DNA of 50,997 nucleotides from a virus (Duplodnaviria; Heunggongvirae; Uroviricota; Caudoviricetes): IMG/VR virus record IMGVR_UViG_648276648_000009, positions 1 through 50,997 of that record. The stretch is one strand, 5' to 3'. This document shows, piece after piece, positions 4,428 through 50,997 of this stretch (the first letter of the stretch is position 1; each line of letters opens with the position of its first letter). Position numbers and translations under genes: made by a program. The notes under the pieces were generated by a model that made no database searches, had not been told where the DNA came from, and saw only the letters and a program-made list of their open reading frames with translations.

Positions 4428-4429
4428 AT

Positions 4430-4505
4430 GCCGGTTTAGCTCAGTTGGTAGAGCGCCTGCCTTGTAAGCAGGATGTCAGCGGTTCGAGTCCGTTAATCGG
4501 CACCA
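4430..4505 (+). tRNA. tRNA-Thr (anticodon UGU)
   Basis: 76 nt; close to E. coli tRNA-Thr as recalled; anticodon loop CTTGTAA; T-loop GGTTCGAGTCC; CCA encoded. Confidence 0.9.
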
Positions 4506-5858: not shown

Positions 5859-6022
5859 TGGTTATAAAAGCACGTCTAATTCTGGCTTTGGTTTTTCTCG
5901 TGCTATCTGTGCTGGTGGATTTCACCAGCACAATCCTGTCGGTTTTATCCGACGGGGCGTTGGTAGCAGTAGCTGTAACATTGGTATGGCCGATATTAAA
6001 AACAGCTTCTAAGGATCAGTGA
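5858..6022 (+). CDS. Small membrane protein, 54 aa (TciB-like)
   Basis: ATG overlaps tciA stop (TGATG); MVIKARLILALVFLVLSVLVDFTSTILSVL... single TM segment; below the ORF-track length cut-off. Confidence 0.55.
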   Translation: MVIKARLILALVFLVLSVLVDFTSTILSVLSDGALVAVAVTLVWPILKTASKDQ

Positions 6023-6129
6023 TGGGCTTCTGGGATTTTGCTGACAAGCATCCAATTGTTCTCGTTGTCATTGCTGGCATAGTTGTAGGCGGTATTGCTG
6101 GCGTCATAGAAGCACTCAGGAAACAGTAA
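6022..6129 (+). CDS. Small membrane protein, 35 aa (TciC-like)
   Basis: ATG overlaps preceding stop (TGATG); MGFWDFADKHPIVLVVIAGIVVGGIAGVIEALRKQ. Confidence 0.5.
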   Translation: MGFWDFADKHPIVLVVIAGIVVGGIAGVIEALRKQ

Positions 6130-6132
6130 TCC

Positions 6133-6208
6133 GGCCCTTTAGCTCAGTGGTTAGAGCTGGCGACTCATAATCGCACGGTCACCGGTTCAAGTCCGGTAGG
6201 GGCCACCA
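6133..6208 (+). tRNA. tRNA with CAU anticodon, most likely tRNA-Ile2 (lysidine-type) rather than Met
   Basis: 76 nt; near-identical to E. coli ileX-type tRNA as recalled; anticodon loop CTCATAA; CCA encoded. Confidence 0.85.
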
Positions 6209-6450
6209 TATTTGGTTGTAACACGGCGTCTGGCACATGCGTCGTTAGCGGTCTGGTGACGTTAAAAGGGGGGAACCTTGCCCCTAGCTCAGGCAACGAA
6301 CCAGGTAGCCGGAATGTGCAAGCCACCGTTTGTTGTTTCTCGGGTAAAGGGATTCACCATCCTGGCGATTCGGTGTGACAGCCGGGAAGAGTCCGGCGCA
6401 TTAATCCTGATTTTCTGGTGATGACTCATATCGTTAGGAGTGATTTGAGT

Positions 6451-6495
6451 ATGCCGATTATATCTGACATTCAGCACGCCTGGGTGGAGTGCTAA
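6451..6495 (+). CDS. 14-codon upstream ORF (MPIISDIQHAWVEC) whose TAA overlaps the ban ATG (TAATG); candidate translational-coupling leader
   Basis: AGGAG 10 nt upstream of the ATG; stop/start overlap read directly. Confidence 0.35.
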   Translation: MPIISDIQHAWVEC

Positions 6496-32474: not shown

Positions 32475-33958
32475 TGGCCAGAAGTTGCGTAACGGATCCA
32501 CGTTGGCGCGAGCTGGTGGCGCTATATCGTTATGACTGGATTGCTGCCGCTGATGTTTTGTTCGGCAAAACACCTACCTGGCAGCAGGATCTGATTATTG
32601 AGTCTGTGCAGGAACAGGGTAGCAAGACATCTGTTTCGTCTGGTCACGGTACCGGGAAATCAGACATGACTTCTATCATGATCATGTTGTTCATAATCAT
32701 GTATCCCGGTGCCCGCGCCATTATCGTTGCGAACAAAATTCAGCAGGTAATGACCGGTATATTCAAGTACATCAAGATAAACTGGGCTACTGCCACCAGC
32801 CGTTTTCCATGGCTTGCTGATTATTTTGTTCTGACAGAAACCGCTTTCTATGAGGTTACTGGTAAAGGTGTATGGACTGTAGTACCGAAGGGCTTTCGTC
32901 TGGGAAGTGAAGAAGCTCTCGCCGGTGAACACGCAGATCATCTTCTGTATATTATCGATGAAGCCTCCGGTGTCAGTGATAGAGCTTTCGGTATCATCAC
33001 CGGTGCTCTTACCGGACAGGATAACCGCATCTTATTACTGTCACAGCCTACACGCCCAAGCGGCTATTTCTACGATACTCACCATAAACTGGCCAAGCGT
33101 CCTGGTAACCCTGATGGCGTTTATACGGCGATCACGCTTAACAGTGAGGAATCACCGCTGGTAACGCCAGCATTTATCAAAATGAAGCTGGCGGAGTACG
33201 GCGGGCGTGATAACCCTATGTACATGATTAAGGTACGCGGACTATTCCCTAAATCACAGGATGGCTTCCTTCTTGGACGTGATGAGGTTGAACGTGCGAC
33301 GCGGCGGAAAGTCAAGATTGCCAAAGGATGGGGCTGGCTTGCATGTGTGGACGTTGCTGGTGGTACGGGACGGGATAAGTCCGTTATCAATATCATGATG
33401 GTGTCCGGCCAGAGAAATAAACGCCGTGTAATCAACTATCGAATGCTGGAATACACAGACGTTACAGAAACGCAGCTTGCCGCCAAAATTTTCGCAGAAT
33501 GTAATCCTGAGCGATTCCCAAATATCACCATAGCGATAGACGGCGATGGGCTGGGTAAAGCAACAGCGGATCTGATGTACGAGTATTATGGTATTACCGT
33601 ACAGCGTATACGCTGGGGTAAAAAGATGCATAGCCGTGAAGATAAGAGCCTGTACTTTGATAAACGTGCTTATGCCAATGTTCAAGCCGCAGAGGCCGTA
33701 AAATCTGGTCGTATGAGACTGGATAAGGGTAATGAAACTATTGAGGAAGCGTCGAAAATCCCTGTAGGGATTAACTCCGCAGGTCAATGGAAGGTGATGA
33801 GTAAGGAGGATATGAAGAAAAAACTCAACCTGCACTCACCAGACCATTGGGATACATATTGTTTCGCTATGCTGGCGGATTATGTTCCCCAGGATGAAGT
33901 GCTTAGCGTCGAAGACGAAGCGCAGGTTGATGAAGCTCTGGCATGGCTTAATGAATGA
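32474..33958 (+). CDS. pacB: Terminase large subunit PacB
   Basis: 494 aa; ATPase motif SSGHGTGKS; TAATG coupling to pacA. Confidence 0.92.
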
Positions 33959-33961
33959 ACA

Positions 33962-33978
33962 TTTGCTCTAATGAATTG
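33962..33978 (+). promoter_or_regulatory. C1 operator (TTTGCTCTAATGAATTG) with downstream -10-like TAACTA
   Basis: Core GCTCTAAT conserved; directly after the pacB stop. Confidence 0.5.
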
Positions 33979-34110
33979 TGTTTTTTAACTACCGATGTTA
34001 CATTGAACCTGACCTCTTGCGCCTTGAGGCATTTTCGGTTTATGCTTATCAGGCACCTCATTAAAACGGGTGCCGGGATTGAGACCCCGGATAATGCAAA
34101 AGGCGACACA

Positions 34111-34132
34111 GACGCCAAAAGCGTCTTTTTTT
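34111..34132 (+). terminator. Rho-independent terminator (GACGC-CAAAA-GCGTC then T7)
   Basis: Read directly. Confidence 0.6.
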
Positions 34133-34139
34133 GTGTCAT

Positions 34140-34300
34140 GCCATCGCACAGCCATACGTAGCGTTTAGCTCAGAGATCAATGGTAGTGCTGGCTGGGCTG
34201 CCGAAAGGCAGGCCGGTTCCCTTTTGCGCCGGTAGTCTCAACCCAGTCAGTGCTACCGCCATTGAGATTGAGACCTCACGCGGTAGCTCCTTAAATTAGC
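34140..34300 (+). ncRNA. Structured leader of immI-like module 1; candidate c4-type antisense RNA region
   Basis: Complementary segments CAATGGTAGTGCTGGCTGGG and CCCAGTCAGTGCTACCGCCATTG plus nested hairpins upstream of the icd-like RBS; exact RNA ends not determinable. Confidence 0.35.
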
Positions 34301-34317
34301 AAAAGGAGGCTGCCATT

Positions 34318-34539
34318 GTGGCTACTATCCCTACCCCTGCTCATCCTGAATTTATCTGGCGCTTTTACTCCTGCCAAAAACGTCACTATCACTTCGTTAT
34401 TGCACCGACAGAAGATGAGGCACGTTCTCAGCTTCCTGACGCCCCATGTATTTTCTCTGCCCGTTTTTCCACTGATTCACGCAATTCTCTCAGTTACTGG
34501 TGCCTCCCTGTTAACGCTTCTGCTCAGGAGGGACTATGA
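34318..34539 (+). CDS. icd: Icd-like 73-aa protein, copy 1
   Basis: GTG start after AAAAGGAGG; overlaps the antirepressor start (ATGA); substitutions between the two copies are almost all synonymous in this frame. Confidence 0.65.
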   Translation: MATIPTPAHPEFIWRFYSCQKRHYHFVIAPTEDEARSQLPDAPCIFSARFSTDSRNSLSYWCLPVNASAQEGL

Positions 34540-35648
34540 GAACATCGTTAGTTACCCGTGAAGAGATGATCGAGGCAATTGAACAGCACACTGCCTGTAT
34601 CAGTACCAGGGATATACCTGGCGTTATTGCCAACTACTTCATGATCACCAAACAACTTTACCGGAGAAAGGACAAACACGCAGTTCACCGCATTCTGCTA
34701 ACCGATATCCGTGAATACCTGCTCGAACAGGGTCATCTAAATTACGCAACCGTCGCAGCCGAAGCACGCAAGGAGGCACACAGAATGAAAGCAACTAACG
34801 TTAAATCAGAAAAAATTTATGCACCTTCAGTTCAGGAATCGGAACTGGTGGTTGTTCAGAATCAGCCGGATGAAATTCCCGTTCTGGAATGGCAGGGAGT
34901 ACGTGTCGTGACAACCGAAACTCTTGCTAGAGGGTATGGGGTCGATGAAGCCAATATTCGCAACAATTTGTCTCGCAACCTTGACCGCTTTGAAGAAGGT
35001 AAGCATTACTTTCTTCTAACTGGTTTAAAATTAAGAGAATTTAAGAACAGAGTAACCGGAAGTTACTCTGTTGGTAAGAACGCCAGAAGCCTTACACTCT
35101 GGACAGAGCGCGGCGCTGCACGCATGTCTAAGATCGTGGACACAAATGAAGCATGGGCATTCTTTGAAAAACTGGAAGACAGCTACTTCCGGCAAAAAGA
35201 ACAGCAACCGGTTGCAATCCCCCAAACATTACCAGAAGCCCTACGCCTGGCTGCCGAACTGGCTGAACAAAAGCAGCTTCTGGAACAGAAAGCCCACCAG
35301 CTAAATCAGCAGCTGGTGGCCGCCGCTCCTAAGGTCGATTTTGCCGACCGGGTATCAGTAGCTAAAGGGATCCTGATTGGGAATTTTGCAAAGGTTGTTG
35401 GACTTAAGCAAAATGCGCTGTTTGCCTGGTTACGGGAGAACGGCATCCTGATAGCGTCCGGTGGACGTAAAAATGTGCCGTTCCAGCAGTACATCAACGC
35501 GGGGTATTTCACGGTGAAAGAAGTGGTGCTGGATGATGAAGATGGCTACCAGATACGGTTGACGCCTCAATTAACGGGTAAAGGCCAGCAGTGGTTGACG
35601 CGTAAACTGCTCGATGCTGGCTTGTTAAAACCGGTGGCGGCTGAATAA
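34536..35648 (+). CDS. ant: Phage antirepressor (AntA-like N-terminal domain, ANT/KilAC C-terminal domain), copy 1
   Basis: 370 aa; translationally coupled to the icd-like ORF. Confidence 0.85.
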   Translation: MRTSLVTREEMIEAIEQHTACISTRDIPGVIANYFMITKQLYRRKDKHAVHRILLTDIREYLLEQGHLNYATVAAEARKEAHRMKATNVKSEKIYAPSVQESELVVVQNQPDEIPVLEWQGVRVVTTETLARGYGVDEANIRNNLSRNLDRFEEGKHYFLLTGLKLREFKNRVTGSYSVGKNARSLTLWTERGAARMSKIVDTNEAWAFFEKLEDSYFRQKEQQPVAIPQTLPEALRLAAELAEQKQLLEQKAHQLNQQLVAAAPKVDFADRVSVAKGILIGNFAKVVGLKQNALFAWLRENGILIASGGRKNVPFQQYINAGYFTVKEVVLDDEDGYQIRLTPQLTGKGQQWLTRKLLDAGLLKPVAAE

Positions 35649-35680
35649 TGGAAGAATGCCCGGTTGATGCCGGGCATAAT

Positions 35681-36532
35681 TTATTGCGCGCTTTCGGGGT
35701 TGTCGTTTACTGGCTGCCCCTTCTTGGTTTTACGGCTGCGCGTAACTGATGCGGCTGACTTAACCTTTTTCTCTTCGCGAGTGATGGCAATTTGTTTTTT
35801 TACATTTTCAATATCTGCCAGGCGATATATTTTTGCTTGCGGCCAGCGGTCGCAGATGATCGGTTCTATGGAGTCATAAAGGCTAAATTTTGCTTTTTCG
35901 AATTCACCGTTGATGATAATTCCATCACGGAGAGTTTCATCGCAGATAAACACGCCACACAGTGGCACATGGTAACTAACTGATTTACCATCATTGTAGT
36001 TAGGGCTACTGGAAATGTAGTGGACGCGCAGCATTGTTTCGCTAAAGCCGTGTACGCGCATACGGAATTTTTCATCCTCCGGGTACTGCCTCATTAGCTC
36101 TTTTGTTGCTTCCAGGTTCTCTATGTATTTCGCACTGTGCTCATTGATCCCCGCGCTTTTTTGGATGCGAATGTCCTTATCAATCAGATGAATAATGCGG
36201 CCAGCGGTCATGTTGACGCTGTTCACAGCTTCTGTCTGATAAGTTGTAACCTTGCGCACACCGCGAAGGATGTTAGGCACTGGATATAAAATAGTCTTTG
36301 GGATATTGAGGTCTGGGTACTGTTCCAGTTCCCGCGCCATTAAAGTCCATTTATCAATTTCAGCCTGAATGCTGTCAGTTTCTTTGAACGGTAGAACGAC
36401 AACCGGGCGTACAGGACGACCGTCGCTGGCTGTATCAACGTGTTGGGCGCGTGCAACAGCTTTTTTTAGAAAGAGATCCCTGAAGCTGACGAACTCCTGG
36501 TACAGTTGTTCGCCGTAGACATAATTTATCAT
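35681..36532 (-). CDS. c1: C1 repressor of lysogeny
   Basis: 283 aa starting MINYVYGEQLYQEF, matching P1 C1 as recalled. Confidence 0.95.
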   Translation of the reverse strand: MINYVYGEQLYQEFVSFRDLFLKKAVARAQHVDTASDGRPVRPVVVLPFKETDSIQAEIDKWTLMARELEQYPDLNIPKTILYPVPNILRGVRKVTTYQTEAVNSVNMTAGRIIHLIDKDIRIQKSAGINEHSAKYIENLEATKELMRQYPEDEKFRMRVHGFSETMLRVHYISSSPNYNDGKSVSYHVPLCGVFICDETLRDGIIINGEFEKAKFSLYDSIEPIICDRWPQAKIYRLADIENVKKQIAITREEKKVKSAASVTRSRKTKKGQPVNDNPESAQ

Positions 36533-36626
36533 TGATCCTCCTCCAGAATTGACATGGTCAATAACGCCCGGCTGAGAAAACCGGTCATTACTGACCTATA
36601 TTATAGAGGGATCAAACAAAAATAAT

Positions 36627-36643
36627 AGATTTATTAGTGCATT
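36627..36643 (-). promoter_or_regulatory. C1 operator-like site, reverse orientation (AGATTTATTAGTGCATT), between coi and c1
   Basis: 14/17 match to the reverse consensus. Confidence 0.45.
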
Positions 36644-36852
36644 TATTGTGAGTCTAACTGGTTAGTTGCCATGAGATATTCGATTGTGTCAGTGAGATCA
36701 TCCAGGTCGTCTTGGGTGATGCGGTACTCCTGATTGGATATCTTTGAGTAGTGTTCAGCAATGGCGCGGGCAGCGTCGGTTTCGGCAGGGTCTACAGATA
36801 AAGCGTTAGAGCAATGTCTAACGTCGTCGATGGTTGGTTGAATGAAAGCCAT
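36643..36852 (-). CDS. coi: Coi (C1 inactivator)
   Basis: 69-aa acidic ORF immediately upstream of c1 on the same strand. Confidence 0.8.
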   Translation of the reverse strand: MAFIQPTIDDVRHCSNALSVDPAETDAARAIAEHYSKISNQEYRITQDDLDDLTDTIEYLMATNQLDSQ

Positions 36853-37090
36853 AATTATGCCTCACTGTATTGACAACACAGAGCCTGAAGCTCTGACCTA
36901 CTGTTTCACCCATGATCCATGCTGGGGTAATCTAACAACATTGCGCTGTGTGTAAGATGAGCAATGCATAGCTGTAATGCCGTTGTATAAGGTTTCCCTG
37001 TTTGCTCATTTCCTTCTGAGCCGCTCTACAACGCTGAAGACACATTAAATAGTGAATCCAAAGTCGTATTACGTAACGGCGGCAAAACCA

Positions 37091-37107
37091 TAATTTATTA
37101 GAGCAAT
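37091..37107 (-). promoter_or_regulatory. C1 operator, reverse orientation (TAATTTATTAGAGCAAT)
   Basis: 16/17 match. Confidence 0.65.
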
Positions 37108-37173
37108 TGTCAAACAACTATGAAAAACAATCCAGTTTTTAGCTGGTGGAGTGGGATTTTTCTCTCAAAATTT

Positions 37174-37190
37174 ATTGCTCTAATAATTAT
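37174..37190 (+). promoter_or_regulatory. C1 operator (ATTGCTCTAATAATTAT)
   Basis: 14/17 match, ~45 bp from loxP. Confidence 0.6.
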
Positions 37191-37233
37191 TGATTTTTGT
37201 GCGCAGCTGGACGTAAACTCCTCTTCGGACCTG

Positions 37234-37267
37234 ATAACTTCGTATAGCATACATTATACGAAGTTAT
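37234..37267 (+). other. loxP recombination site (ATAACTTCGTATA-GCATACAT-TATACGAAGTTAT)
   Basis: Exact 34-bp loxP: two 13-bp inverted repeats around an 8-bp spacer. Confidence 0.98.
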
Positions 37268-37338
37268 CTTAAGGGTTATTGAACATGATCAATTTACCTG
37301 TAAATCCATACAGTTCAATACCTTACAGGTCAAATAGT

Positions 37339-37358
37339 GATCACTTGATCATTTGATC
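37339..37358. promoter_or_regulatory. Cluster of three GATC (Dam) sites in TGATCA-like hexamers (GTGATCAC TTGATCAT TTGATCAA) in the cre upstream region
   Basis: Read directly; flanked by inverted repeats. Confidence 0.5.
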
Positions 37359-37455
37359 AAGGTTGCGCTACGTAAAATCTGCGAAATGTTGGCAGTGTTA
37401 GTGCTCCAGATTTCGCGTAGCGCACTTAGCACCACCAATCAATCAGAGGTGAAAA

Positions 37456-37677
37456 ATGGGATATTCAGCTGCTAAAGTGTCCACTCATATTGAGCTTGAG
37501 AAAAACCGTGGTTACTGGCGGGCAAAAGGGTTTGATCGTGATAGTTGTCAACTGTCATTATCGCGCGGTGAAGAGAAAATAGAACGCACGCGCGGTCGCT
37601 GGCGTTTCTATGACGAGAACCATAAACAGGTAAAGGCAGAGCCGATCCTGTACACTTTACTTAAAACCATTATCTGA
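37456..37677 (+). CDS. Hypothetical 73-aa basic protein upstream of cre
   Basis: ORF preceded by GAGGTG SD; ends 8 nt before the cre ATG. Confidence 0.45.
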   Translation: MGYSAAKVSTHIELEKNRGYWRAKGFDRDSCQLSLSRGEEKIERTRGRWRFYDENHKQVKAEPILYTLLKTII

Positions 37678-37684
37678 GTGTTAA

Positions 37685-38716
37685 ATGTCCAATTTACTGA
37701 CCGTACACCAAAATTTGCCTGCATTACCGGTCGATGCAACGAGTGATGAGGTTCGCAAGAACCTGATGGACATGTTCAGGGATCGCCAGGCGTTTTCTGA
37801 GCATACCTGGAAAATGCTTCTGTCCGTTTGCCGGTCGTGGGCGGCATGGTGCAAGTTGAATAACCGGAAGTGGTTTCCCGCAGAACCTGAAGATGTTCGC
37901 GATTATCTTCTATATCTTCAGGCGCGTGGTCTGGCAGTGAAAACTATCCAGCAACATTTGGGCCAGCTAAATATGCTTCATCGTCGGTCCGGTCTGCCAC
38001 GACCAAGTGACAGCAATGCTGTTTCACTGGTCATGCGACGGATCCGAAAAGAAAACGTTGATGCCGGTGAACGTGCAAAACAGGCACTGGCGTTCGAACG
38101 CACTGATTTCGACCAGGTTCGTTCACTCATGGAAAATAGCGATCGCTGCCAGGATATACGTAATCTGGCATTTCTGGGGATTGCTTATAACACCCTGTTA
38201 CGTATAGCCGAAATTTCCAGGATCAGGGTTAAAGATATCTCACGTACTGACGGTGGGAGAATGTTAATCCATATTGGCAGAACGAAAACGCTGGTTAGCA
38301 CCGCTGGTGTAGAGAAGGCACTTAGCCTGGGGGTAACTAAACTGGTTGAGCGATGGATTTCTGTCTCTGGTGTAGCTGATGATCCGAATAACTACCTGTT
38401 TTGCCGCGTCAGAAAAAATGGTGTTGCCGCGCCATCATCCACCAGCCAGCTATCAACTCGCGCCCTGGAAGGGATTTTTGAAGCAACTCACCGATTGATT
38501 TACGGGGCAAAAGATGACTCTGGTCAGCGATACCAGGCCTGGTCTGGACATAGTGCCCGTGTCGGTGCCGCGCGAGATATGGCCCGCGCCGGAGTTTCTA
38601 TACCGGAGATCATGCAAGCTGGTGGCTGGACCAACGTAAATATTGTCATGAACTACATTCGTAACCTGGATAGTGAAACGGGGGCAATGGTGCGCCTGCT
38701 GGAAGATGGCGATTAG
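37685..38716 (+). CDS. cre: Cre site-specific tyrosine recombinase
   Basis: 343 aa, MSNLLTVHQNLPALPVDATSDEVRKNLMDMFRDRQAFSEHTWKMLLSVCRSWAAWCKLNN... Confidence 0.98.
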   Translation: MSNLLTVHQNLPALPVDATSDEVRKNLMDMFRDRQAFSEHTWKMLLSVCRSWAAWCKLNNRKWFPAEPEDVRDYLLYLQARGLAVKTIQQHLGQLNMLHRRSGLPRPSDSNAVSLVMRRIRKENVDAGERAKQALAFERTDFDQVRSLMENSDRCQDIRNLAFLGIAYNTLLRIAEISRIRVKDISRTDGGRMLIHIGRTKTLVSTAGVEKALSLGVTKLVERWISVSGVADDPNNYLFCRVRKNGVAAPSSTSQLSTRALEGIFEATHRLIYGAKDDSGQRYQAWSGHSARVGAARDMARAGVSIPEIMQAGGWTNVNIVMNYIRNLDSETGAMVRLLEDGD

Positions 38717-38733
38717 CCGTTCATTTGCGCTTG

Positions 38734-38750
38734 ATTGCTCTAATTATTTG
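38734..38750 (+). promoter_or_regulatory. C1 operator (ATTGCTCTAATTATTTG)
   Basis: 14/17 match, upstream of the cra-like ORF. Confidence 0.55.
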
Positions 38751-38766
38751 ATATTTATGGTGACAC

Positions 38767-39078
38767 ATGCGGAAGGATTTCAAAATAGACGGAAAATATG
38801 TGGTGCTGTCTGTAAGCTCTCAAATTCAGTCACCATCTGTCATTGTCACCGTAAAGTTGAGCGATAGGATGCCTGATATCGACTCGATATCTGTTGCGTT
38901 CCCCGTTAAAAGCATGCGGAGTGCTGAACATTTTGTGATGAATGCAACGGAGGAGGAAGCGCGGCGCGGGCTTACTAGAGTGATGGGGGAATTTGGCGAA
39001 CTCCTGGGTAAGGTAAACAATGCTCTTTCAATCAGTTCAGCAAGGTCCAAAGCGTTAACAGCTTCCATGATGAAATAA
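38767..39078 (+). CDS. cra: Cre-associated small protein (P1 Cra-like)
   Basis: 103-aa ORF immediately downstream of cre. Confidence 0.6.
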   Translation: MRKDFKIDGKYVVLSVSSQIQSPSVIVTVKLSDRMPDIDSISVAFPVKSMRSAEHFVMNATEEEARRGLTRVMGEFGELLGKVNNALSISSARSKALTASMMK

Positions 39079-39210
39079 AAAAAAGCCTGGCAAGGAGCCA
39101 GGCTGCACAAAAGAGCGGGTTTGTATTCCGCATCCAATCAATCAAGAAGGAGTATAGCACACAGGTACTGAAGTGAAAAAATGTGATTCGCGATAAACAA
39201 AATATCTACC

Positions 39211-39240
39211 ATTGCTCTAATTGATTGCTATAATTTAGCC
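39211..39240 (+). promoter_or_regulatory. C1 operator (ATTGCTCTAATTGATTG) overlapping a second partial copy (ATTGCTATAATTTAGCC) with TATAAT -10 hexamer
   Basis: Read directly upstream of ref. Confidence 0.55.
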
Positions 39241-39294
39241 GCATTTTTTGTCAACTACGAAGACGTTGCCATTACTTCACTCCTTGACATCATT

Positions 39295-39320
39295 GGCGGC
39301 CATTAGGCCGCCTTTTTTTT
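39295..39320 (+). terminator. Hairpin GGCGGCC-ATTA-GGCCGCC followed by T8, 5 bp upstream of the ref ATG (terminator or attenuator-like)
   Basis: Read directly; function uncertain because it abuts a start codon. Confidence 0.4.
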
Positions 39321-39325
39321 GCCAT

Positions 39326-39886
39326 ATGAAAACAATCGAACAAAAACTTGAACAGCGCCGCGAGTGGCAGAAGGCAGCCAGAGAACGAGCGATCGCTCGG
39401 CAACGGGAAAAGTTGGCTGACCCCGCCTGGCGAGAATCGCAATATCAGAAAATGCGGGATTCTATCGACCGCCGTATCGCTAAACAGAAAGAGCGCCCAC
39501 CAGCCAGCAAAACGCGGAAAAGTGCGGTAAAAATAAAATCTCGTGGCTTGAAGGGGCGAACACCGACGGCGGAGGAACGGACCATCGCCAATGCTCTTGG
39601 CACTCTCCCCTGCATTGCCTGCTACATGCATGGAGTAATATCTGAAGAGGTGTCTCTGCACCATATCTCCGGTCGTACCGCGCCGGGTTGTCACAAAAAG
39701 CAATTGCCCCTTTGTAGATGGCACCACCAGCATGCTGCACCGGCTGAAGTAAGAGCAAAATACCCCTGGCTGGTCCCTGTTCATGCCGATGGTGTGGTTG
39801 GAGGCAAGAAAGAATTCACCTTGCTGAACAAGTCAGAGATGGAGTTACTGGCTGACGCCTATGAGATGGCAAACATCATGCACTAA
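39326..39886 (+). CDS. ref: Ref (recombination enhancement function), HNH-type endonuclease
   Basis: 186 aa starting MKTIEQKLEQRREWQKAARERAIARQRE; Cys/His HNH-like cluster. Confidence 0.9.
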   Translation: MKTIEQKLEQRREWQKAARERAIARQREKLADPAWRESQYQKMRDSIDRRIAKQKERPPASKTRKSAVKIKSRGLKGRTPTAEERTIANALGTLPCIACYMHGVISEEVSLHHISGRTAPGCHKKQLPLCRWHHQHAAPAEVRAKYPWLVPVHADGVVGGKKEFTLLNKSEMELLADAYEMANIMH

Positions 39887-40075
39887 TAAATATATTATTT
39901 TTAATGATAAATGATTGACAACTGACAAGTGACTTCAGTCAGAATCATCACATGCCCGGTACGGATGGATCCCTTTTCAAATATTCCATGGACGGCACAG
40001 TCTGAGTACCGGGCGCTACCTTCAGTTGTATTGCTAAGCCGCCGCTGGTGGCTTTTCTTTTTTGTAGGGGGCGCT

Positions 40076-40717
40076 ATGGATAAGAAAATATGCGTTGTTT
40101 CGATGAGCGTCGGCAAACCGGCGTCAATGACTGCTGCATGGATCAATAACGAGCTGATAATGGCTGAGCGGACCAGCTACCCTGAACGCCGCCGCGATAT
40201 GGAACTCCAGCTGCTGCGCGAATTGCGAGAAAAAGAGGATAAGGGTTTTATCGTGCTGGTGGAAGAGGAAAACAGCTTTATTACTGGTCGAGTTGGCCAG
40301 CGTGTAAGGTTGCGCGATCCCTTCATGAACGGCAGGCCGGTACTAATTGAGGCAATGCAGATTTACAAGGAGTTGGAACGCCAGAAAGCGATCAAGTTAC
40401 CGCGCAAAGAATCCGGCAAATACATCCTCCACCAAAGCATCTTCGATTCCGAACATGACAAAAAAGGCGATGAATTTTTCAACATCAACTGGAGCGAAAT
40501 AACGACAGAGCATGTTCTGACGTTACTATGTTGCTTTGCGACGGAATACAACAACGTTGCCAGCGCCGACTACATCAGGGCAATGGATGGAGAAGTTGAG
40601 GCACGCCAGGAACCATCGTTACTAAGCCCTCTGATTAACATAATTCGCGGCACACAGAGACTTGCGGAAAAAAGCGTTCCACATGGAATCTTAACTGGAA
40701 AGGGAAACTATTTTTAA
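40076..40717 (+). CDS. mat: Mat-like protein
   Basis: ORF downstream of ref; internal ATG 40076 preceded by GGGGG SD. Confidence 0.6.
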   Translation: MDKKICVVSMSVGKPASMTAAWINNELIMAERTSYPERRRDMELQLLRELREKEDKGFIVLVEEENSFITGRVGQRVRLRDPFMNGRPVLIEAMQIYKELERQKAIKLPRKESGKYILHQSIFDSEHDKKGDEFFNINWSEITTEHVLTLLCCFATEYNNVASADYIRAMDGEVEARQEPSLLSPLINIIRGTQRLAEKSVPHGILTGKGNYF

Positions 40718-40750
40718 CATCCCCAAATCCTTTTGGGGAACAACTCATTC

Positions 40751-41062
40751 TTACAATAGCGGCCCCATACATTGTCTCCAGGCACTCCCCTCATTACCGT
40801 TATCAAGAAACGTAGAGGTTGCATATGGAATGCCTCTGATTTGTGTTGATATGAATGGACCATCAGACGTCGAAGTTGTACGCAGTTTTGATGTAAGTAC
40901 GTATTTTCCACTGATGCCTTTCTCTGCCAGAGCTTTTGATTTTGTGATAACTAAATCTGCACATTTCTCTGCGGCTACATATTGCGGGTCTTTTTCAGCT
41001 TTTCCGGCACATGCAGTTATCGTTAAAACGATAGCTGCGGCTAACAAATTACCTAGTTTCAT
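40751..41062 (-). CDS. Small lipoprotein (signal peptide with lipobox LTITAC)
   Basis: MKLGNLLAAAIVLTITACAGK... ; sits in the position where P1 carries res-mod. Confidence 0.6.
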   Translation of the reverse strand: MKLGNLLAAAIVLTITACAGKAEKDPQYVAAEKCADLVITKSKALAEKGISGKYVLTSKLRTTSTSDGPFISTQIRGIPYATSTFLDNGNEGSAWRQCMGPLL

Positions 41063-41166
41063 CTGCATACCTTATTAAGTGCATTAAAAACAGTAGGTTG
41101 CCAAGGTTTAAAACAAATTTCAACCCCCCGTGACGCGCAACATGAGCAAAAATAACACACAATCCC

Positions 41167-41199
41167 ATTGCTCTAATAAATTTGATTTATTGGAGCAAA
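41167..41199. promoter_or_regulatory. Inverted pair of C1 operators (exact ATTGCTCTAATAAATTT at 41167-41183, then reverse-oriented ATTTATTGGAGCAAAT)
   Basis: Read directly between the lipoprotein gene and immI-like module 2. Confidence 0.65.
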
Positions 41200-41259
41200 T
41201 AACCTACCATTGCGCACTGCCCTATTGATCTTCCTGTCGTTCAGGCTTATAGTCCCACC

Positions 41260-41495
41260 GTCGTAGCAAATTCTGCGACCGGGTTTGACAGCCTGAATGT
41301 ACATGCGGACAACCGCAGATTTCCGATATTGCGGTATTTTTGTGTCCGTAAACCACGTTACGCCCGAATTATGGTGGGGCGTGATGGGGAGGCTTCGGCC
41401 TGCTGGTTTCATGTACGCCAGTCTGTCAACCCCGTCACGTCCTGCCACCTGTTTGACAGCGGGTAGCAGGTTGTTAAACCTGTACATGAGGCCGT
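41260..41495 (+). ncRNA. Structured leader of immI-like module 2 with a three-element sense/antisense/sense arrangement; candidate c4-type antisense RNA
   Basis: TTGATC-N17-TATAGT promoter at 41226-41254; GTTTGACAGCCTGAATGTACATG (41283-41305) is complementary to CATGTACGCCAGTCTGTCAAC (41406-41430), which can also pair with TTGACAGC...TGTACATGAGG overlapping the icd-like RBS. Confidence 0.4.
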
Positions 41496-41499
41496 AACT

Positions 41500-41721
41500 A
41501 TGGTTAATGCCAATCCTTGCGCACGCCCTGAATTTATCTGGCGCTTTTACTCCTGCCAGAAACGTCACTATCACTTCGTTATTGCACCGACAGAAGATGA
41601 GGCTCGCTCTCAGCTTCCGGATGCTCCCTGCATTTTCTCTGCCCGTTTTTCCACTGATTTGCGCAACTCTCTCAGTTACTGGTGTCTCCCTGTTAACGCT
41701 TCTGCTCAGGAGGGACTATGA
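41500..41721 (+). CDS. icd: Icd-like 73-aa protein, copy 2
   Basis: Identical to copy 1 except the first 9 residues and one S-to-L change; ATGA overlap with the antirepressor. Confidence 0.65.
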   Translation: MVNANPCARPEFIWRFYSCQKRHYHFVIAPTEDEARSQLPDAPCIFSARFSTDLRNSLSYWCLPVNASAQEGL

Positions 41722-42836
41722 GAACGTCATTAGTCACCCGTGAAGAGATGATCGAGGCAATTGAACAGCATACCGCCTGTATCAGTACCAAGGATATACC
41801 GGGCGTTATTGCCAACTACTTCATGATCACCAAACAACTTTACCGGAGAAAGGACAAGAACGCGGTTCACCGTATCCTGTTGTCTGATATCCGCGAATAC
41901 CTGCTCGAACAGGGTCATCTGAATTACGCAACCGTCGCAGCCGAAGCACGCAAGGAGGCACACAGAATGAAAGCAACTAACGTTAAATCAGAAAAAATTT
42001 ATGCACCTTCAGTTCAGGAATCGGAACTGGTGGTTGTTCAGAATCAGCCGGATGAAATTCCCGTTCTGGAATGGCAGGGAGTACGTGTCGTGACAACCGA
42101 AACTCTTGCTAGAGGGTATGGGACAGAAACAATCCGTATTCGCCAAAATCATCATGAGAACAAAGTACGCTTTGTTGAAGGGAAGCACTTTTTCAAAGTT
42201 GAAGGAGAATCATTGCGCGAGTTGAAGCACAGAGTAGCTTTAAACTACTCTGTAAAAATTGCTCGCAATGTTCGCTCACTCACCCTCTGGACAGAACGCG
42301 GCGCAGCCCGCCACGCTAAAATGCTCGAAACCGATCAGGCATGGGCATTCTTTGAAAAACTGGAAGACAGCTACTTCCGACAAAAAGAACAGCAACCGGT
42401 TGCAATCCCCCAGACGCTTCCAGAAGCCCTACGCCTGGCTGCCGAACTGGCTGAACAAAAGCAGCTTCTGGAACAGAAAGCCCACCAGCTAAATCAGCAG
42501 CTGGTGGCCGCCGCTCCTAAAGTCGATTTTGCCGACCGGGTATCAGTAGCTAAAGGGATCCTGATTGGGAATTTTGCAAAGGTTGTTGGACTTAAGCAAA
42601 ACGCGCTGTTTGCCTGGTTACGGGAGAACGGCATCCTGATTGCGTCCGGCGGGCGTAAAAATGTACCGCTCCAGCAATACATCAACGCCGGGTATTTCAC
42701 GGTGAAAGAAGTGGTGCTGGATGATGAAGATGGCTACCAGATACGGTTGACGCCTCAATTAACGGGTAAAGGCCAGCAGTGGTTGACGCGTAAACTGCTC
42801 GATGCTGGCTTGTTAAAACCGGTGGCAGCTGAATAA
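41718..42836 (+). CDS. ant: Phage antirepressor, copy 2 (mosaic: termini near-identical to copy 1, central ~70 aa divergent)
   Basis: 372 aa; direct comparison with 34536-35648. Confidence 0.85.
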   Translation: MRTSLVTREEMIEAIEQHTACISTKDIPGVIANYFMITKQLYRRKDKNAVHRILLSDIREYLLEQGHLNYATVAAEARKEAHRMKATNVKSEKIYAPSVQESELVVVQNQPDEIPVLEWQGVRVVTTETLARGYGTETIRIRQNHHENKVRFVEGKHFFKVEGESLRELKHRVALNYSVKIARNVRSLTLWTERGAARHAKMLETDQAWAFFEKLEDSYFRQKEQQPVAIPQTLPEALRLAAELAEQKQLLEQKAHQLNQQLVAAAPKVDFADRVSVAKGILIGNFAKVVGLKQNALFAWLRENGILIASGGRKNVPLQQYINAGYFTVKEVVLDDEDGYQIRLTPQLTGKGQQWLTRKLLDAGLLKPVAAE

Positions 42837-42967
42837 TGGAAGAATGCCCGGTTGAGATGCCGGGCATGATTAAATGTCTCTTCAGCACATTACCGAAGTT
42901 CAATCTTCAACCAAGAAGTGTACTCGCATACGATTATCGCAATAAAATACTTGAAGTTTTATAAACT

Positions 42968-43441
42968 GTGAGTATCATTGCCCATATGAAAACATCCTAT
43001 TTAACTATATTGGCTTTCCATATTCGCGATTTTCGCGAGAAGTATGGTGTTACTCAATCAGACATTGCATCTGGCCTTGGGATAACAAGTGCCGGTTGGG
43101 GAAAAATTGAAAATGGTAAGTCCTCTCTCTCTGTAGAGAATATGATGAAATTCTGTAAAATTATTAATATTGATGCAACCATACTTCTTGATATTTCCAC
43201 GAAATCGGCAAAAAACTTAATCAAATGTGGATGGAGTGTATCTTATTCTCCTGTTGAGGATGATAATTTAATAGACGGAAAAAATATATTTGCTAAAACA
43301 CATGGAATGAATAACGTCATGAGGAAATTTATAGACGGGAAACTTGGAAGTGTTTTAGACAAAGAATTTGATGACATTATTATGAAATATGCAACATTTT
43401 ATATGGTTGTAGCTAAAAATCTAAGAGATGACTTGATTTAA
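42968..43441 (+). CDS. XRE-family helix-turn-helix regulator with C-terminal extension
   Basis: HTH LTILAFHIRDFREKYGVTQSDIASGLGITSAGWGKIENGKSSLSVENMMKFCKIINI; AT-rich codon usage. Confidence 0.65.
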   Translation: MSIIAHMKTSYLTILAFHIRDFREKYGVTQSDIASGLGITSAGWGKIENGKSSLSVENMMKFCKIINIDATILLDISTKSAKNLIKCGWSVSYSPVEDDNLIDGKNIFAKTHGMNNVMRKFIDGKLGSVLDKEFDDIIMKYATFYMVVAKNLRDDLI

Positions 43442-43456
43442 AAATGGAGTGTACAT

Positions 43457-44209
43457 ATGGCATACAGACAAGACAGCGATCTTGAATTCCTAGCTAAATG
43501 TAGCGACCGTGATCTTGATGATTTAGTTAACCTATTGATTTATGATAACGATGGCAAAAAAAGATGGACTGAAGAGTTATCTAACAATCGACAATATAAG
43601 GAATTTGTACCAAGACATAGCGTATATTGGAGAGAAATTGCTGCTGAAATTCAATGTTATGGTGGAAATACCATAGCAACTCTCTTGCGTGGTGGTAAAG
43701 GGGTCTGCTACAGAGAAATTCTCATTGATGTATGCAATAAGCTAAAGGTTAATTTCAATGCCAAGAGCCGAATAGAGGTTATTGAACAAAATCTTCTATT
43801 AAAAATTCTCAGCGACTCTCTAGATAACATGTCATCCGAAGATATAAAAGTTTTTGCCATGGAACTTGGATTGGATGAAGTTACAAGATTTACTCCTGAG
43901 GCAGTTCTATCTGCCTTCCAATATATTTTCAGGGCCGGCGGTTTCAGATCTTATCAGGTAACTCTTAAATTTGCGAATCTTTTACTAAAAATTTTAATTG
44001 GACGCGGTTTGACACTCGCAGGTAATCAAATACTCGTAAAAGCATTATCTATTTTAACAGGCCCAATTGGTTGGACTATAACAGCCGCATGGACCATTGT
44101 AGATGTGGGAGGAACTGCTTATCGAGTAACAATTCCTGCTGTTATTCAAGTTGCTGTACTAAGGGCGAAAGTCAATAATAATATTAAAGACAGCGATATT
44201 ACCTTGTGA
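43457..44209 (+). CDS. YaaW/DUF3944-like protein with C-terminal glycine-rich hydrophobic segment
   Basis: 250 aa; YDNDGK...CYGGNTIATLLRGG...YREILIDVCNKL and C-terminal VDVGGTAYRVTIPAVIQVAVL resemble YaaW (UPF0174) as recalled; GGAGTG SD. Confidence 0.6.
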   Translation: MAYRQDSDLEFLAKCSDRDLDDLVNLLIYDNDGKKRWTEELSNNRQYKEFVPRHSVYWREIAAEIQCYGGNTIATLLRGGKGVCYREILIDVCNKLKVNFNAKSRIEVIEQNLLLKILSDSLDNMSSEDIKVFAMELGLDEVTRFTPEAVLSAFQYIFRAGGFRSYQVTLKFANLLLKILIGRGLTLAGNQILVKALSILTGPIGWTITAAWTIVDVGGTAYRVTIPAVIQVAVLRAKVNNNIKDSDITL

Positions 44210-45003: not shown

Positions 45004-48000
45004 TTATGCGTATTGTTGGATGACGGCCAGAACGTCCGCCACGTTGTGTTTTGTCTCGATAATCCACCAGTTACCTGGGAAGTCGCTGTTCTTCGCCTTC
45101 GCTGGCAGCCAGCGAGCGCCGAATTTCGCCTTGATTGCGTCTTTCGCACGGAAAAGAACGCCTTTCATGCCTGAGGCTTCCTGAAGCCCAAATACCTCGC
45201 CAGCGGCGAATTTTGGTGCGTACATCATCTTCAGGTCGGCGGTGGATACGCGATAATTCAGACCAAGAGACTGAGCTATGCTGGTGGCATCACCCTGTAT
45301 TGATGATAACTCTTCTTGTTTCTCGTTTCTGGCGGCAATTTCTTCCTCCGTGATGTTGCCAAGGGCCAGGTTTATCCGATCAGCGTCGGCCTGTTTCTCT
45401 TCATCGGTGCGCCCGGCAAGAACCGTGTTAATTCTCTGCAATATCTCCACATGATTCTTGCGCATGCTGAGCAATTCCGGCGTAACCTCGTTAAGATCCA
45501 CCAGCCCAAGGATGGCAAGGTCGGAAAACATTGATACTAGGTTGTAGGTCATGCGATAGCTGAGTTGGCCATAGGCTGATGGCAACTGCACCGCATCCAT
45601 TTGATAGGCATCCATAAATTTAGAGCCGTCGTTTACGACATCCGCAATTGCAGGTGTGATTTTCCCTGTGGTGGCGGCCTCCCTGATTGCTGTTACCCAT
45701 GATTGAGTCAGTGCGGCGACTGCATGATTCAGATTGGCTTCCCGTTCTGCTGCGATGCGCGCGCTTGCTGAGTCCATTGCCTGCTTGATCTCGGCTTTAT
45801 TGCTGTAAATGCCGATGGTGCCAAACTGTGCTGTGGTGATCTCATAATCTGACGCCCGGAACTCATGGGTACCGAAAATGGCATTGGTGACCTCAAGTTC
45901 AGAATCCCCGTTACGAGTAGCCCCCTGGCTTGTTTTCTCCGGCATTTTTGCGATCGCATCCGCTATTTTCTCCTGAATTGCTTCAGGGGATAGCGTATCT
46001 CCGTATGACGCGATTACATCGCCATAATTGGAGCCAAACAATTCAACCAGGAATGTTTCTGCCGAACGGATCTGGCGGTTATTCCCTTCCGACATCATAC
46101 CAAGCACCCATTTTGCAATTGACGACTTCAGCGCGCCGTCACGGCGATCCGGGTAAACCGCATGCTTCAGTGGGGCCGTATAGGAACCAACAAAATCAAT
46201 GCTATAGCCTGACTCTGTAGTCTGAACGCCGTATGAGTCAGTGATTTTGATCATGCCGCGCTGCTGGAAACGGTAGAAATCGTCACAGGAAATGATGTCG
46301 TTAATCCCGGCGATGGAGACGCCACCACTGATTTTCTGCATAACAGCATCTTCATCGGGAGTTACATCAACCTGTTTATCCAGCGTCTTCACATCCCAGT
46401 TACCCGATTTGGTGCCTTTGAAGGTAAAGATGATCTCCACGTCTGCGCGCTGGCTGTCGAAGTCCAGCGACTTAATGCGAACGATATCACCGGCACAATC
46501 ATAGTATTGGCCTACACGCCATGAGCGATCGCCGATAACAAGGAACTCATTCGCATGGTTAACCAGATCAGGATCAACATCCAGAATGCCTTTATTTATT
46601 GCATCCTCCACCAGCGGGCGCAGGCGTTTGATATCCGTCGCGGCCTTCTGAGTACGGTTCAATAATTTCTCATAGCGGGAGATGGCCTGAGAGATATTAG
46701 CCTTGCGCTGAATGGCGCTTTTCAACGACGCGCGATACTGTGCTAACAACATACGGTCTGTGTGATGGACGCTACCCCAGCGGGCTTTCCAGTCTGCGTT
46801 ATCAGCTGCTTTGGCCATTACCGCCTGTTTGAATTTGGCGACGTCGGCGGTGGTCTTTTCAAGTTCCGCTTTGCTTCGCTCCAATTCAGCGGTAAGTACC
46901 TCCACATCCTCACCAGCTGCGTGCTGCGCCTTGATGTAGTTCTGAAGGTCGATAGTAGCCTGTTCTTTCTGGCGAGCGCGTTTCGCAGCTTTCGCCTTAT
47001 CCATTTGAACCTGCATCATTACCAGACGTTCGCCGTCATCCTTCGCGGTATACATCTGCATTTCGATCATGTCATTGGCGTCGGCGTTCTCCATTTCTGA
47101 CTTATCTGAACGGAGGATATCGGAGATCCAGCCTGCTTTACGCTTCAGCGTCTTCAGTCGGTATTCATCGAAAGACCCCTTGCCGCAGTAGTAGTGAACG
47201 CGAACGCTTGCACGGTTGGAGCCAACTCGTGCACCGCGACCGTTACGTTGTGCGATACTGGCTGGTGTCCACGGCAACGTCAGGTGGTGGATATCCGTCG
47301 TTCCTCGATGCAGGTTGATACCCACCTCTGCCTTTTTGTTGCAGATGATGATCGGAGTCCGGCCCTCCTGGAAGTCGGCTGCAATCTTTTCCAGACCGCC
47401 CAACGACATTTCATTTTGCTGCGCGATATAGGCGTCATACAGAGCCATTTGCTCGTTGTATTTCGCTATCTGTGCATCTGTTGGTTCATCCGGTAGCTCT
47501 TTCGGCGGTTTAACCGCTTTCAGTTTCTTACCGGTTTTACCTGCCTCGGCAACCGTCTGAGCATTCAGGATCCCCACCTTTGAAGGTTCAAGGTCTAGAG
47601 CATTGCAGATAATGCGCTTGAGCTTCTGGTGCTGCGTTTTTTCATCGGTGAAGATGACTTGCTTACCTTCCGGGAAAAACTCCTTCAGCGTGGCGATCAG
47701 CTTCGCGTATTTCGGCGTAACGGGGTGAGTTACGGTCAGTTCGTCAATGCCAAACCTGGCCAGGCGCTTATTCACTTCCTGCTCGAACGCTTCCGGAACC
47801 TGCAACTGAATAAACTCGCCCTTATCTATCAGGGAGTATTGCGATTGCTGCGTGATTGAATCATCACTGTCGTCGTCTTCGCTGGTGGCTTGTTTAGGCA
47901 AACTGTCCGCCAGCTGCTGCACCGCATCGGCGTACTCCGGCAGGAAACGATAGGTGATCCGGCGATAGTACAGGTCCATGTCAGTACATACGCGGTCCAT

Positions 48001-50496: not shown

Positions 50497-50535
50497 GCCG
50501 AGACGGCCTTCTGTTGTAGTCAGGTTACGCTGAAG

Positions 50536-50997
50536 GGCACTGTTGCAAAGTTAGCGATGAGGCAGCCTTTTGTCTTATTCAAAGGCCTTACATTTCAAAA
50601 ACTCTGCTTACCAGGCGCATTTCGCCCAGGGGATCACCATAATAAAATGCTGAGGCCTGGCCTTTGCGTAGTGCACGCATCACCTCAATACCTTTGATGG
50701 TGGCGTAAGCCGTCTTCATGGATTTAAATCCCAGCGTGGCGTTGATTATCCGTTTCAGTTTGCCATGATCGCATTCAATCACGTTGTTCCGGTACTTAAT
50801 CTGTCGGTGTTCAACGTCAGACGGGCACCGGCCTTCGCGTTTGAGCAGAGCAAGCGCGCGACCATAGGCGGGCGCTTTATCCGTGTTGATGAATCGTGGG
50901 ATCTGCCACTTCTTCACGTTGTTGAGGATTTTACCCAGAAACCGGTATGCAGCTTTGCTGTTACGACGGGAGGAGAGATAAAAATCGACAGTGCGGC
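50536..50997 (-). mobile_element. IS26 (IS6 family), partial; terminal inverted repeat GGCACTGTTGCAAA at 50536-50549, element continues beyond window end
   Basis: Characteristic 14-bp IR and Tnp26 C-terminal sequence. Confidence 0.9.
50588..50997 (-). CDS. tnpA: IS26 transposase Tnp26, C-terminal part (N-terminus off-window)
   Basis: ...NVKKWQIPRFINTDKAPAYGRALALLKREGRCPSDVEHRQIKYRNNVIECDHGKLKRI...RLVSRVFEM matches IS26 transposase as recalled. Confidence 0.92.
   Translation of the reverse strand, partial: RTVDFYLSSRRNSKAAYRFLGKILNNVKKWQIPRFINTDKAPAYGRALALLKREGRCPSDVEHRQIKYRNNVIECDHGKLKRIINATLGFKSMKTAYATIKGIEVMRALRKGQASAFYYGDPLGEMRLVSRVFEM

Follow-up and report, generated by a model that had tools for sequence, protein, structure and literature searches.

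Long direct repeats around c1 and cre in a P1-like phage-plasmid: the bodies of two immI-type operons with different C4 antisense RNAs

Why would a phage-plasmid carry two nearly identical stretches of some 1.3 kilobases (kb), in the same orientation, on either side of its repressor gene c1 and its cre-loxP system, and what becomes of the region when the two recombine? The question is raised by a viral DNA of 50,997 nucleotides (nt) (Duplodnaviria; Heunggongvirae; Uroviricota; Caudoviricetes) that is held in IMG/VR as record IMGVR_UViG_648276648_000009 (positions 1 to 50,997; the window hereafter, i.e. the whole stretch that was analysed). The source of the window is a P1-like (IncY) phage-plasmid: pacA and pacB lie upstream of the first repeat copy, a darB-like gene lies beyond the region, and hundreds of Escherichia coli plasmids match it. 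The main biological point of the locus is that each repeat copy comes with a C4 antisense RNA and with C4 targets of its own. We consider it likely that the repeats are the shared bodies of two insulated immI-type operons, which recombine with each other by gene conversion and for which a crossover is a dead end. One of what read as two complete immI operons is situated between pacB and c1 (position 1, module 1) and the other after mat (position 2, module 2), i.e. at the place that is taken by res-mod in P1.

A BLAST comparison of the window with itself yielded one long direct pair and no other non-trivial pair (34345-35681 versus 41527-42871, E = 0), with 89.7% identity over 1349 aligned nt and 5 gap openings, and a repeat search recovered the same pair at a spacing of 7182-7188. 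The identity is distributed unevenly: a left arm (about 34345-34930, ~590 nt) is ~95% identical between the copies and a right arm (about 35130-35681, ~550 nt) ~95-97%, and the centre that they enclose (about 34930-35130, ~200 nt) is ~55-60% identical and differs by 6 nt in length. The longest exact runs shared by the copies measure 201, 137, 101, 80 and 56 base pairs (bp). The repeat starts ~27 nt inside icd and ends just past a terminator-like hairpin 3' of ant, so that the regulatory heads of the two modules, which have almost no sequence in common, lie outside of it.

34345-35681, plus strand: direct repeat copy 1, comprising icd from about codon 10, ant and a terminator hairpin (35656-35677)
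41527-42871, plus strand: direct repeat copy 2, including a terminator hairpin (42844-42867)

A preliminary description of this DNA had placed direct repeats around c1, coi, loxP, cre, cra, ref and mat at 34316-42836 and had proposed to compare the window with itself; the repeats are indeed there, and the coordinates are correct to within ~35 nt at either end. The genes it named are all present, in a different order, namely c1 (minus strand), coi (minus strand), loxP, cra, cre, c8, ref and mat: cra precedes cre, and the gene that follows cre is c8. Its reading of the copies as icd/antirepressor genes is right as far as it goes, and it overlooked the whole immI operons, with distinct C4 RNAs and targets, of which these genes form part. 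An assembly artefact or a simple tandem-type duplication could be rejected as the origin of the pair, because the heads are wholly different and the same layout occurs in at least eight independently sequenced complete plasmids.

When the two heads are aligned with immI of P1 and P7, for which full annotations exist, operator, promoter, a1/b1, C4, a2/b2 and icd start come into register. The order of elements known from P1/P7 immI, from the operator (here a predicted one) through the coupled icd-ant pair and the Ant2 start, recurs in both modules. In the case of module 1 the following elements were recognized:

33962-33978, plus strand: putative C1-operator-like site TTTGCTCTAATGAATTG, which matches the 17-bp operator consensus of P1 at 14 of 17 positions and aligns with Op51/Oc4 of P1 and P7
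34053-34131, plus strand: isrK-like leader (Rfam isrK RF01394, 59 bits against a gathering score of 50)
34079-34085, plus strand: a1 target TTGAGAC
34096-34103, plus strand: b1 target GCAAAAGG
34110-34126, plus strand: terminator hairpin of the leader, followed by a T-run (T7)
34176-34263, plus strand: C4 antisense RNA (Rfam C4 RF01695, 75 bits against a gathering score of 45)
34268-34274, plus strand: a2 target TTGAGAC, pairing with a' GUCUCAA
34299-34306, plus strand: b2 target GCAAAAGG, overlapping the icd Shine-Dalgarno sequence AGGAGG
34318-34539, plus strand: icd copy 1, 73 amino acids (aa), GTG start (PHROG 1426 at 1.7e-45)
34536-35648, plus strand: ant copy 1, 370 aa (PHROG 63, anti-repressor Ant, at 1e-135)

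The corresponding elements of module 2 are:

41167-41183, plus strand: predicted C1 operator ATTGCTCTAATAAATTT, a perfect 17/17 match to the consensus that aligns with Op51 of P1/P7
41225-41253, plus strand: sigma-70-like promoter, from a promoter scan
41247-41299, plus strand: c4-a1b1 leader (Rfam RF03163, 57.9 bits against 46.7)
41285-41291, plus strand: a1 target TTGACAG
41298-41305, plus strand: b1 target TGTACATG, which runs just beyond the Rfam match
41367-41452, plus strand: C4 antisense RNA (Rfam C4 RF01695, 70.7 bits against a gathering score of 45)
41453-41459, plus strand: a2 target TTGACAG
41482-41489, plus strand: b2 target, overlapping the icd Shine-Dalgarno sequence (GAGG)
41500-41721, plus strand: icd copy 2, 73 aa
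41718-42836, plus strand: ant copy 2, 372 aa, with ORF6N and KilAC domains

The a2/b2 target regions as a whole span 34268-34309 and 41453-41491, both on the plus strand. Both icd-ant pairs are intact: the icd stop and the ant start overlap in an ATGA (34536-34539 in copy 1, 41718-41721 in copy 2), and an Ant2-type start is conserved in either copy, namely an in-frame internal ATG behind an AAGGAGG Shine-Dalgarno sequence (AAGGAGG-N8-ATG) at 34785 and 41967, respectively, that aligns with the annotated ant2 start of P1. The product of icd copy 1 is 81% identical to Icd of P1 (tblastn). The matches in Pfam, PHROGs and Rfam left no ambiguity as to the families. The C4 region of module 1 is annotated in RefSeq/PLSDB as a small coding sequence for an 'ash family protein', sometimes as a pseudogene (examples lie at positions 12282-12401 and 581-700 of the locus extracts from relatives), and the RNA genes are left unannotated there.

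The heteroimmunity of P1 and P7 is a textbook case of a specificity that is set by a small antisense RNA. Two short elements of C4, b' and a', pair with a1/b1 and a2/b2, as is annotated in the P1 and P7 records; these elements were reportedly described by Citron and Schuster in 1990 and by Heinrich et al. in 1995. The minimum free energy folds of both window C4 RNAs agree with those of the P1 and P7 C4 RNAs, and from the predicted folds (for module 2 also from the alignment with C4 of P1 and P7) the b' loop and the a' element, single-stranded in module 1, can be read as follows:

P1 C4: b' CACUAAC, a' CUGUCAA
P7 C4: b' CACAAUC, a' CUGCUAA
Module 2 C4: b' CAUGUAC, a' CUGUCAA
Module 1 C4: b' CCUUUUGC, a' GUCUCAA

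By direct reading, a1, b1, a2 and b2 of each window module match the module's own C4 exactly, the partner of the module 2 loop, GTACATG(A), being found at 41299 and 41482. The calculated energies of the C4-target duplexes, which take in some flanking stem bases and give a rough ranking only, amount to -25 to -29 kcal/mol for cognate pairs (-25 for module 1) and to -11 kcal/mol for the cross between modules 1 and 2, versus -16.5 to -19.4 for the cross between P1 and P7. On this ranking, cross-repression between the two modules is predicted to be weaker than that between P1 and P7, whose heteroimmunity is known from experiment.

The correspondence between C4 and targets extends beyond the window. 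In an automated table of 24 modules from 14 elements, the loop varies by allele among the modules that have P1/P7-type heads, and all four targets vary along with it in 14 of 14 cases. In the case of the isrK-type heads the table recovers part of the pairing, the full target match having been read directly for window module 1. The P1-type head occurs with at least five b' alleles and two a' alleles and the isrK-type head in at least three variants, and modules that reside together in one genome always differ in their C4 type. Loop and targets that change together are not expected under drift, and the trans-compensatory pattern argues for functional RNAs.

Each head consists of a predicted C1 operator with a promoter, a leader with the a1/b1 decoy or target sites, C4, and a2/b2 laid over the icd ribosome-binding site. 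If the modules work as immI does in P1 and P7, pairing of C4 with a2/b2 would block the translation of icd and thereby, via translational coupling, the synthesis of Ant, which in turn would inactivate C1. Since neither recognition element is shared between the two C4 RNAs, nor between their targets, each C4 is expected to silence its own operon only, and the element would thus possess two mutually insulated antirepressor switches, probably three with the kilA-repL-linked operon of its relatives. Once resident, such a plasmid would be able to silence relatives of a wider range of immI types when they enter; an invader, in turn, would always bring along an Ant beyond the reach of the resident's set of C4 RNAs. 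The shared coding body would then be a by-product of the modular design that doubles as a substrate for homologous recombination, and in nature this recombination is visible as gene conversion and as a shuffling of ORF6N alleles between positions.

The shuffling of alleles concerns the divergent centre of the repeat, which is the core of the ORF6N domain of Ant (Pfam):

34930-35130, plus strand: divergent centre of copy 1, Ant residues about 132-198, ORF6N; allele 1 of 9

In ant copy 1 the ORF6N domain covers aa 116-200 and the KilAC domain aa 258-359 (Pfam). The window Ants are 55-56% identical to Ant1 of P1 overall, the first 87 aa and, towards the C-terminus, the KilAC domain being conserved; the middle region has no P1 counterpart, the ORF6N domain being absent from P1 Ant. 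Among 20 non-canonical modules we found nine discrete centre alleles, at 50-92% nucleotide identity, which are not tied to a position: the allele of window copy 2 occurs at position 1 in NZ_CP077568.1, NZ_CP021340.1 and phage 673R5, and that of window copy 1 occurs at position 1 in NZ_CP101271.1, NZ_JBRBPT010000003.1 and JL22. Across 11 elements, C1 itself keeps an identity of at least 98.9%, so that the variation of the centre does not follow C1. In some relatives one of the extra ant genes is a pseudogene, for example those at position 1 of NZ_CP077568.1 (internal stop), at position 2 of NZ_JBTZPE010000003.1 (split) and in 673R5 (frameshift).

Judged by their exact runs of 201, 137 and 101 bp, which far exceed the minimum of roughly 25 bp for RecA-dependent exchange, the two copies are recombination-competent. 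An exchange between them can be recognized in the closest relative, NZ_JBRBPT010000003.1 (strain CH4797), which over window positions 33600-43800 (10.2 kb) differs by 16 substitutions and an insertion of the IS21 family. No fewer than 15 of the 16 substitutions fall within 151 bp of copy 2, and all 15 agree with copy 1, which itself does not differ between the two plasmids; the other 15 informative sites of the left arm keep the copy-2 state.

41771-41921, plus strand: conversion tract, 15/15 informative sites, maximum extent about 41736-42122

This pattern of bases marks the tract, of 151 to ~387 bp, as a gene conversion between these same two repeats. The insertion in the same relative is an IS21-family element (ISSso4-like istA/istB) that sits in mat, at window position about 40181-40186. 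Across plasmids, the sites that separate the window copies are biallelic and are arranged in block mosaics along the arms. A general homogenisation within genomes was not seen in the arm comparisons, in which copies from one genome (95.6% identity in the left arm, 96.6% in the right arm) are no more alike than copies from different genomes, be it at the same position (95.5% and 97.2%) or at different positions (95.0% and 96.3%). The tract in NZ_JBRBPT010000003.1 is the only clearly intragenomic event.

The products of a crossover were sought with two composite queries, one for the deletion junction (pacB-head1-icd-ant-HTH-JukA-like, 3.8 kb) and one for the circle or duplication junction (mat-head2-icd-ant-c1, 4.2 kb), counting as matches those that covered at least 80% of the query. 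None of 5,426 complete E. coli genomes and none of 829 query-matching PLSDB records contained the deletion junction, and the circle/duplication junction (mat-ant-c1) was absent from the same 5,426 genomes, searches that are blind to deletions in lineages that do not carry the HTH and JukA-like genes and to rare subpopulations of a culture. The predicted deletion would take away c1 and mat, and the predicted circle has no replicon; excision would for these reasons be a hazard, not a function, and a crossover is probably counter-selected, being lethal or a dead end. The gene mat is among those listed as essential, with a role in particle maturation (PMC10695390, Table 2), although its knock-down by CRISPR interference (CRISPRi) gave an efficiency of plating of 0.28 (PMC10695390). 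The past mosaic exchange that the preliminary description had suspected is supported by the nine centre alleles, which occur at either position, and by the block mosaics of the arms. Its further proposal, homologous recombination that excises the repressor and the Cre/loxP system, stands as regards competence and exchange and found no support in these searches as regards the excision or deletion product.

Parts of the region are matched by ~700-900 of the 5,426 genomes. The junction of pacB with module 1 is present in at least 121 of them, that of mat with module 2 in 15 and both in ~8; two plasmids carry the second module alone. The two closest complete relatives, NZ_CP101271.1 and NZ_JBRBPT010000003.1, have a third, canonical immI next to kilA-repL, the C4 of which is identical to that of P7; neither kilA nor repL lies within the window. 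NZ_CP077568.1 has three modules around immC, of which one is inverted and takes the place of ref. The inverted module (locus-extract positions 5706-7242, minus strand, between c8 and mat) has a C4 of its own (CACAAGU/CUGUCAA) and encodes a P1-type Ant that lacks ORF6N. Copies in inverted orientation could in NZ_CP077568.1 allow the part of the region on the cre side to be inverted.

How does this arrangement relate to systems that are already known? With immI of P1 and P7 it has in common, besides the order of elements, two short elements in which the specificity is placed and which change in step with their targets; module 2 has a head ~78-87% identical to the P1/P7 heads, with the same a' element as P1. 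Nevertheless, the b' loops of the window, CAUGUAC and CCUUUUGC, are neither of the P1 nor of the P7 type, and the Ants, ~56% identical to P1 Ant overall, have an ORF6N middle that is lacking in P1 Ant. The genomic linkage differs as well, since immI of P1/P7 has kilA-repL immediately downstream and sim upstream, whereas window copy 1 faces the convergent c1 and the HTH and JukA-like genes come after copy 2. Finally, the window element has several immI-type operons in one genome where P1 has a single immI.

The head of module 1 points in addition to the antirepressor locus isrK-orf45-anrP of the Salmonella prophage Gifsy-1, in which IsrK, a short terminated leader, activates in trans the translation of the coupled orf45-antirepressor pair (Hershko-Shalev et al. 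2016, PMC4825925). Module 1 shares with that locus an isrK-family leader with its own terminator, above the Rfam threshold, as well as a C4-like processed RNA region, a short open reading frame (ORF) and an AUGA-coupled antirepressor. It differs in that the short ORF is a clear Icd homologue, that the antirepressor has the termini of P1 Ant and that it is located in a P1-type plasmid prophage beside c1. The plasmid prophage of phage D6 also has two icd-containing modules, one with a head that is 92% identical to that of module 1 and has the same C4 loop, the other resembling the head of module 2; here, however, a Rha-type antirepressor instead of an ORF6N-KilAC protein follows the module-1-type head, and the genomic positions are different. 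Systems for programmed excision or inversion would have repeats that a dedicated site-specific recombinase recognizes and a flanking geometry that is kept among relatives; the window repeats are 1.3-kb coding sequences and not short att- or lox-type sites, and the single loxP is the only recombinase site that was found between them.

Both insertion sites have been reported before, and what the window shows varies an immunity system that is already known and is not new in kind. In the sections of Venturini et al. 2019 (PMC6906374) that treat these variants, ant is placed between pacB and c1 in RCS47 and pTZ20_1P, and icd-ant homologues together with a regulator are described as replacing res-mod in pSvP1, p95NR1A (CP021340) and p95JB1 (CP021336), i.e. 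the same two insertion sites and the same gene content as in the window, given there as differences in gene content. The plasmid p95NR1A has both flanking copies, as in the window. The same sections yielded no analysis of C4 specificity, of the repeat geometry around immC/cre, of ORF6N alleles or of recombination between the copies. A survey of 77 P1-like plasmids leaves icd, ant and immunity unmentioned (PMC9603915), and the literature that was searched likewise gave no treatment of C4 specificities, of the series of ORF6N alleles or of exchange between the copies.

Between the two repeats lie the following features:

35681-36532, minus strand: c1, encoding the repressor (283 aa), in convergent orientation to ant copy 1
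36643-36852, minus strand: coi (C1 inactivator), 69 aa
37234-37267, plus strand: loxP, the exact canonical 34-bp site
37456-37677, plus strand: cra, a 73-codon ORF upstream of cre
37685-38716, plus strand: cre
38767-39078, plus strand: c8, the gene after cre
about 39326-39886, plus strand: ref
about 40076-40717, plus strand: mat, intact in the window

A conserved ORF of 105 aa (40751-41068, minus strand; PHROG 16031, no Pfam match) separates mat from the head of module 2, and this segment is also found, at ~89% identity, in many P1-like plasmids without module 2. On the 3' side of ant copy 2 (42968-44209) are genes for an HTH_3 regulator (157 aa) and a DUF3944/YaaW-like protein (250 aa), where P1 has EcoP1I res-mod. 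The latter protein matches the PADLOC profile JukA (E = 1e-65), and no JukB-like partner was detected among the small ORFs that neighbour its gene; the pair may be a candidate anti-phage defence cargo that was exchanged for the restriction system. The ORF of the darB-like methylase/helicase (window 45004-50997, minus strand) is listed at 1830 aa with a start at 50496. Its frame upstream of that start (50497-50997) is full of stops and the gene measures 6768 nt in relatives, so that the 5' end of the window copy appears truncated or replaced. At the other end, the left edge of the window cuts through a ribosomal frameshift element of the IS3 family (IS1222-type; 1-60, minus strand), from which it follows that an insertion sequence (IS) copy abuts the window start. 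Three tRNA genes are present at 4352-4505 and 6133-6208 (Asn-GTT, Thr-TGT, Met/Ile-CAT); P1 too has a small set of tRNA genes.

Are the repeats, then, kept for their recombination or for what they encode? One could imagine a genetic switch in which the repeats are a programmed or selected substrate and a RecA-dependent crossover releases c1-coi-loxP-cre-ref-mat in circular form, with a chimeric ant staying behind, for instance as an irreversible commitment to lysis or in the making of virulent variants. The direct orientation, the arms of ~590 and ~550 nt at 95-97% identity with exact runs of up to 201 bp, the demonstrable exchange of sequence between the copies and the location between them of the gene for Ref, an enhancer of RecA-dependent recombination, would all suit such a switch. 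We nevertheless hold it to be very improbable, because no deletion junction came to light in the 5,426 genomes or the 829 PLSDB matches and no circle junction in the 5,426 genomes, and because all recombination footprints that were seen are of the non-crossover kind. Its product would moreover lack c1, hence could not persist as a plasmid prophage, and would also lack mat, listed as essential (PMC10695390), with the circle having no replicon. The flanking geometry, too, is not conserved, as 121 genomes have position 1 filled, 15 position 2 and ~8 both, so that most P1-like plasmids possess a single flanking copy or none. The opposite view, in which the extra modules are inert passengers, i.e. 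decaying remnants of prophage recombination whose repetition has no regulatory meaning, can draw on the pseudogenes among the extra ants of several relatives, on the fact that position 2 is filled in only 15 of 5,426 genomes and on P1, for which a single immI suffices. Decay is at odds, though, with the intactness of both icd and both ant genes in the window, with the perfect complementarity of the C4 RNAs of P1/P7-type heads to all four of their own targets in spite of their different loops (window module 1 being equally complementary by direct reading), with the filling of position 1 in at least 121 genomes and with the perfect operator consensus of module 2, and this view therefore seems to us unlikely.

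A similarly low probability is given to the idea that the extra Ants are aimed at the repressors of other prophages or competitors, as a weapon of cross-induction that C4 silences in lysogeny. It would account for a C1 that is at least 98.9% identical among 11 elements next to nine centre alleles at 50-92% nucleotide identity; ORF6N-like sequence occurs in Ant/Roi-type genes of Shiga toxin (Stx) phages and other lambdoid phages and not in P1 Ant, and the module 1 head belongs to the isrK family described in the Gifsy-1 antirepressor locus (PMC4825925). Against it are the high conservation with P1 Ant of the N-terminal Ant1-specific region and of KilAC and the retention of predicted C1 operators by the operons. 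The explanation preferred here, two insulated immI-type operons with a shared body, has points against it as well. The identity of ~56% to P1 Ant1 together with the ORF6N middle means that the target of Ant might not be C1; the pseudogenes among the extra ants suggest that the extra modules are dispensable; and in module 1 the operator-like site has three mismatches and the promoter hexamers (TTGCGC / TATGCT, by alignment) are weak. The third immI module, which the window element probably has, is seen in the relatives alone, the duplex energies are as rough as stated above, and C4 repression and orthogonality are predictions, drawn only from complementarity and from the analogy with P1/P7.

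For the P1-like phage-plasmids, the hazard of losing c1 through mat by recombination is of minor importance unless its rate is measurable. Assemblies and typing schemes can go wrong over the shared 1.3-kb bodies, which mark a region of ongoing gene conversion around c1 and cre. Two or three insulated C4/Ant switches in one element would, if real, furnish a natural series of orthogonal RNA-target pairs. It is possible, and we offer it tentatively as a broader hypothesis, that P1-like phage-plasmids stack orthogonal immI switches whose C4 keys diversify combinatorially in a frequency-dependent arms race over superinfection, with the icd-ant body as a recombining cassette that is shared between the switches and with ORF6N as a part that may retarget Ant. 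Many P1-like plasmids are reported to carry resistance genes, and the presence of such switches would, if real, help to explain how these plasmids, which are very common in E. coli, both coexist with and displace one another.

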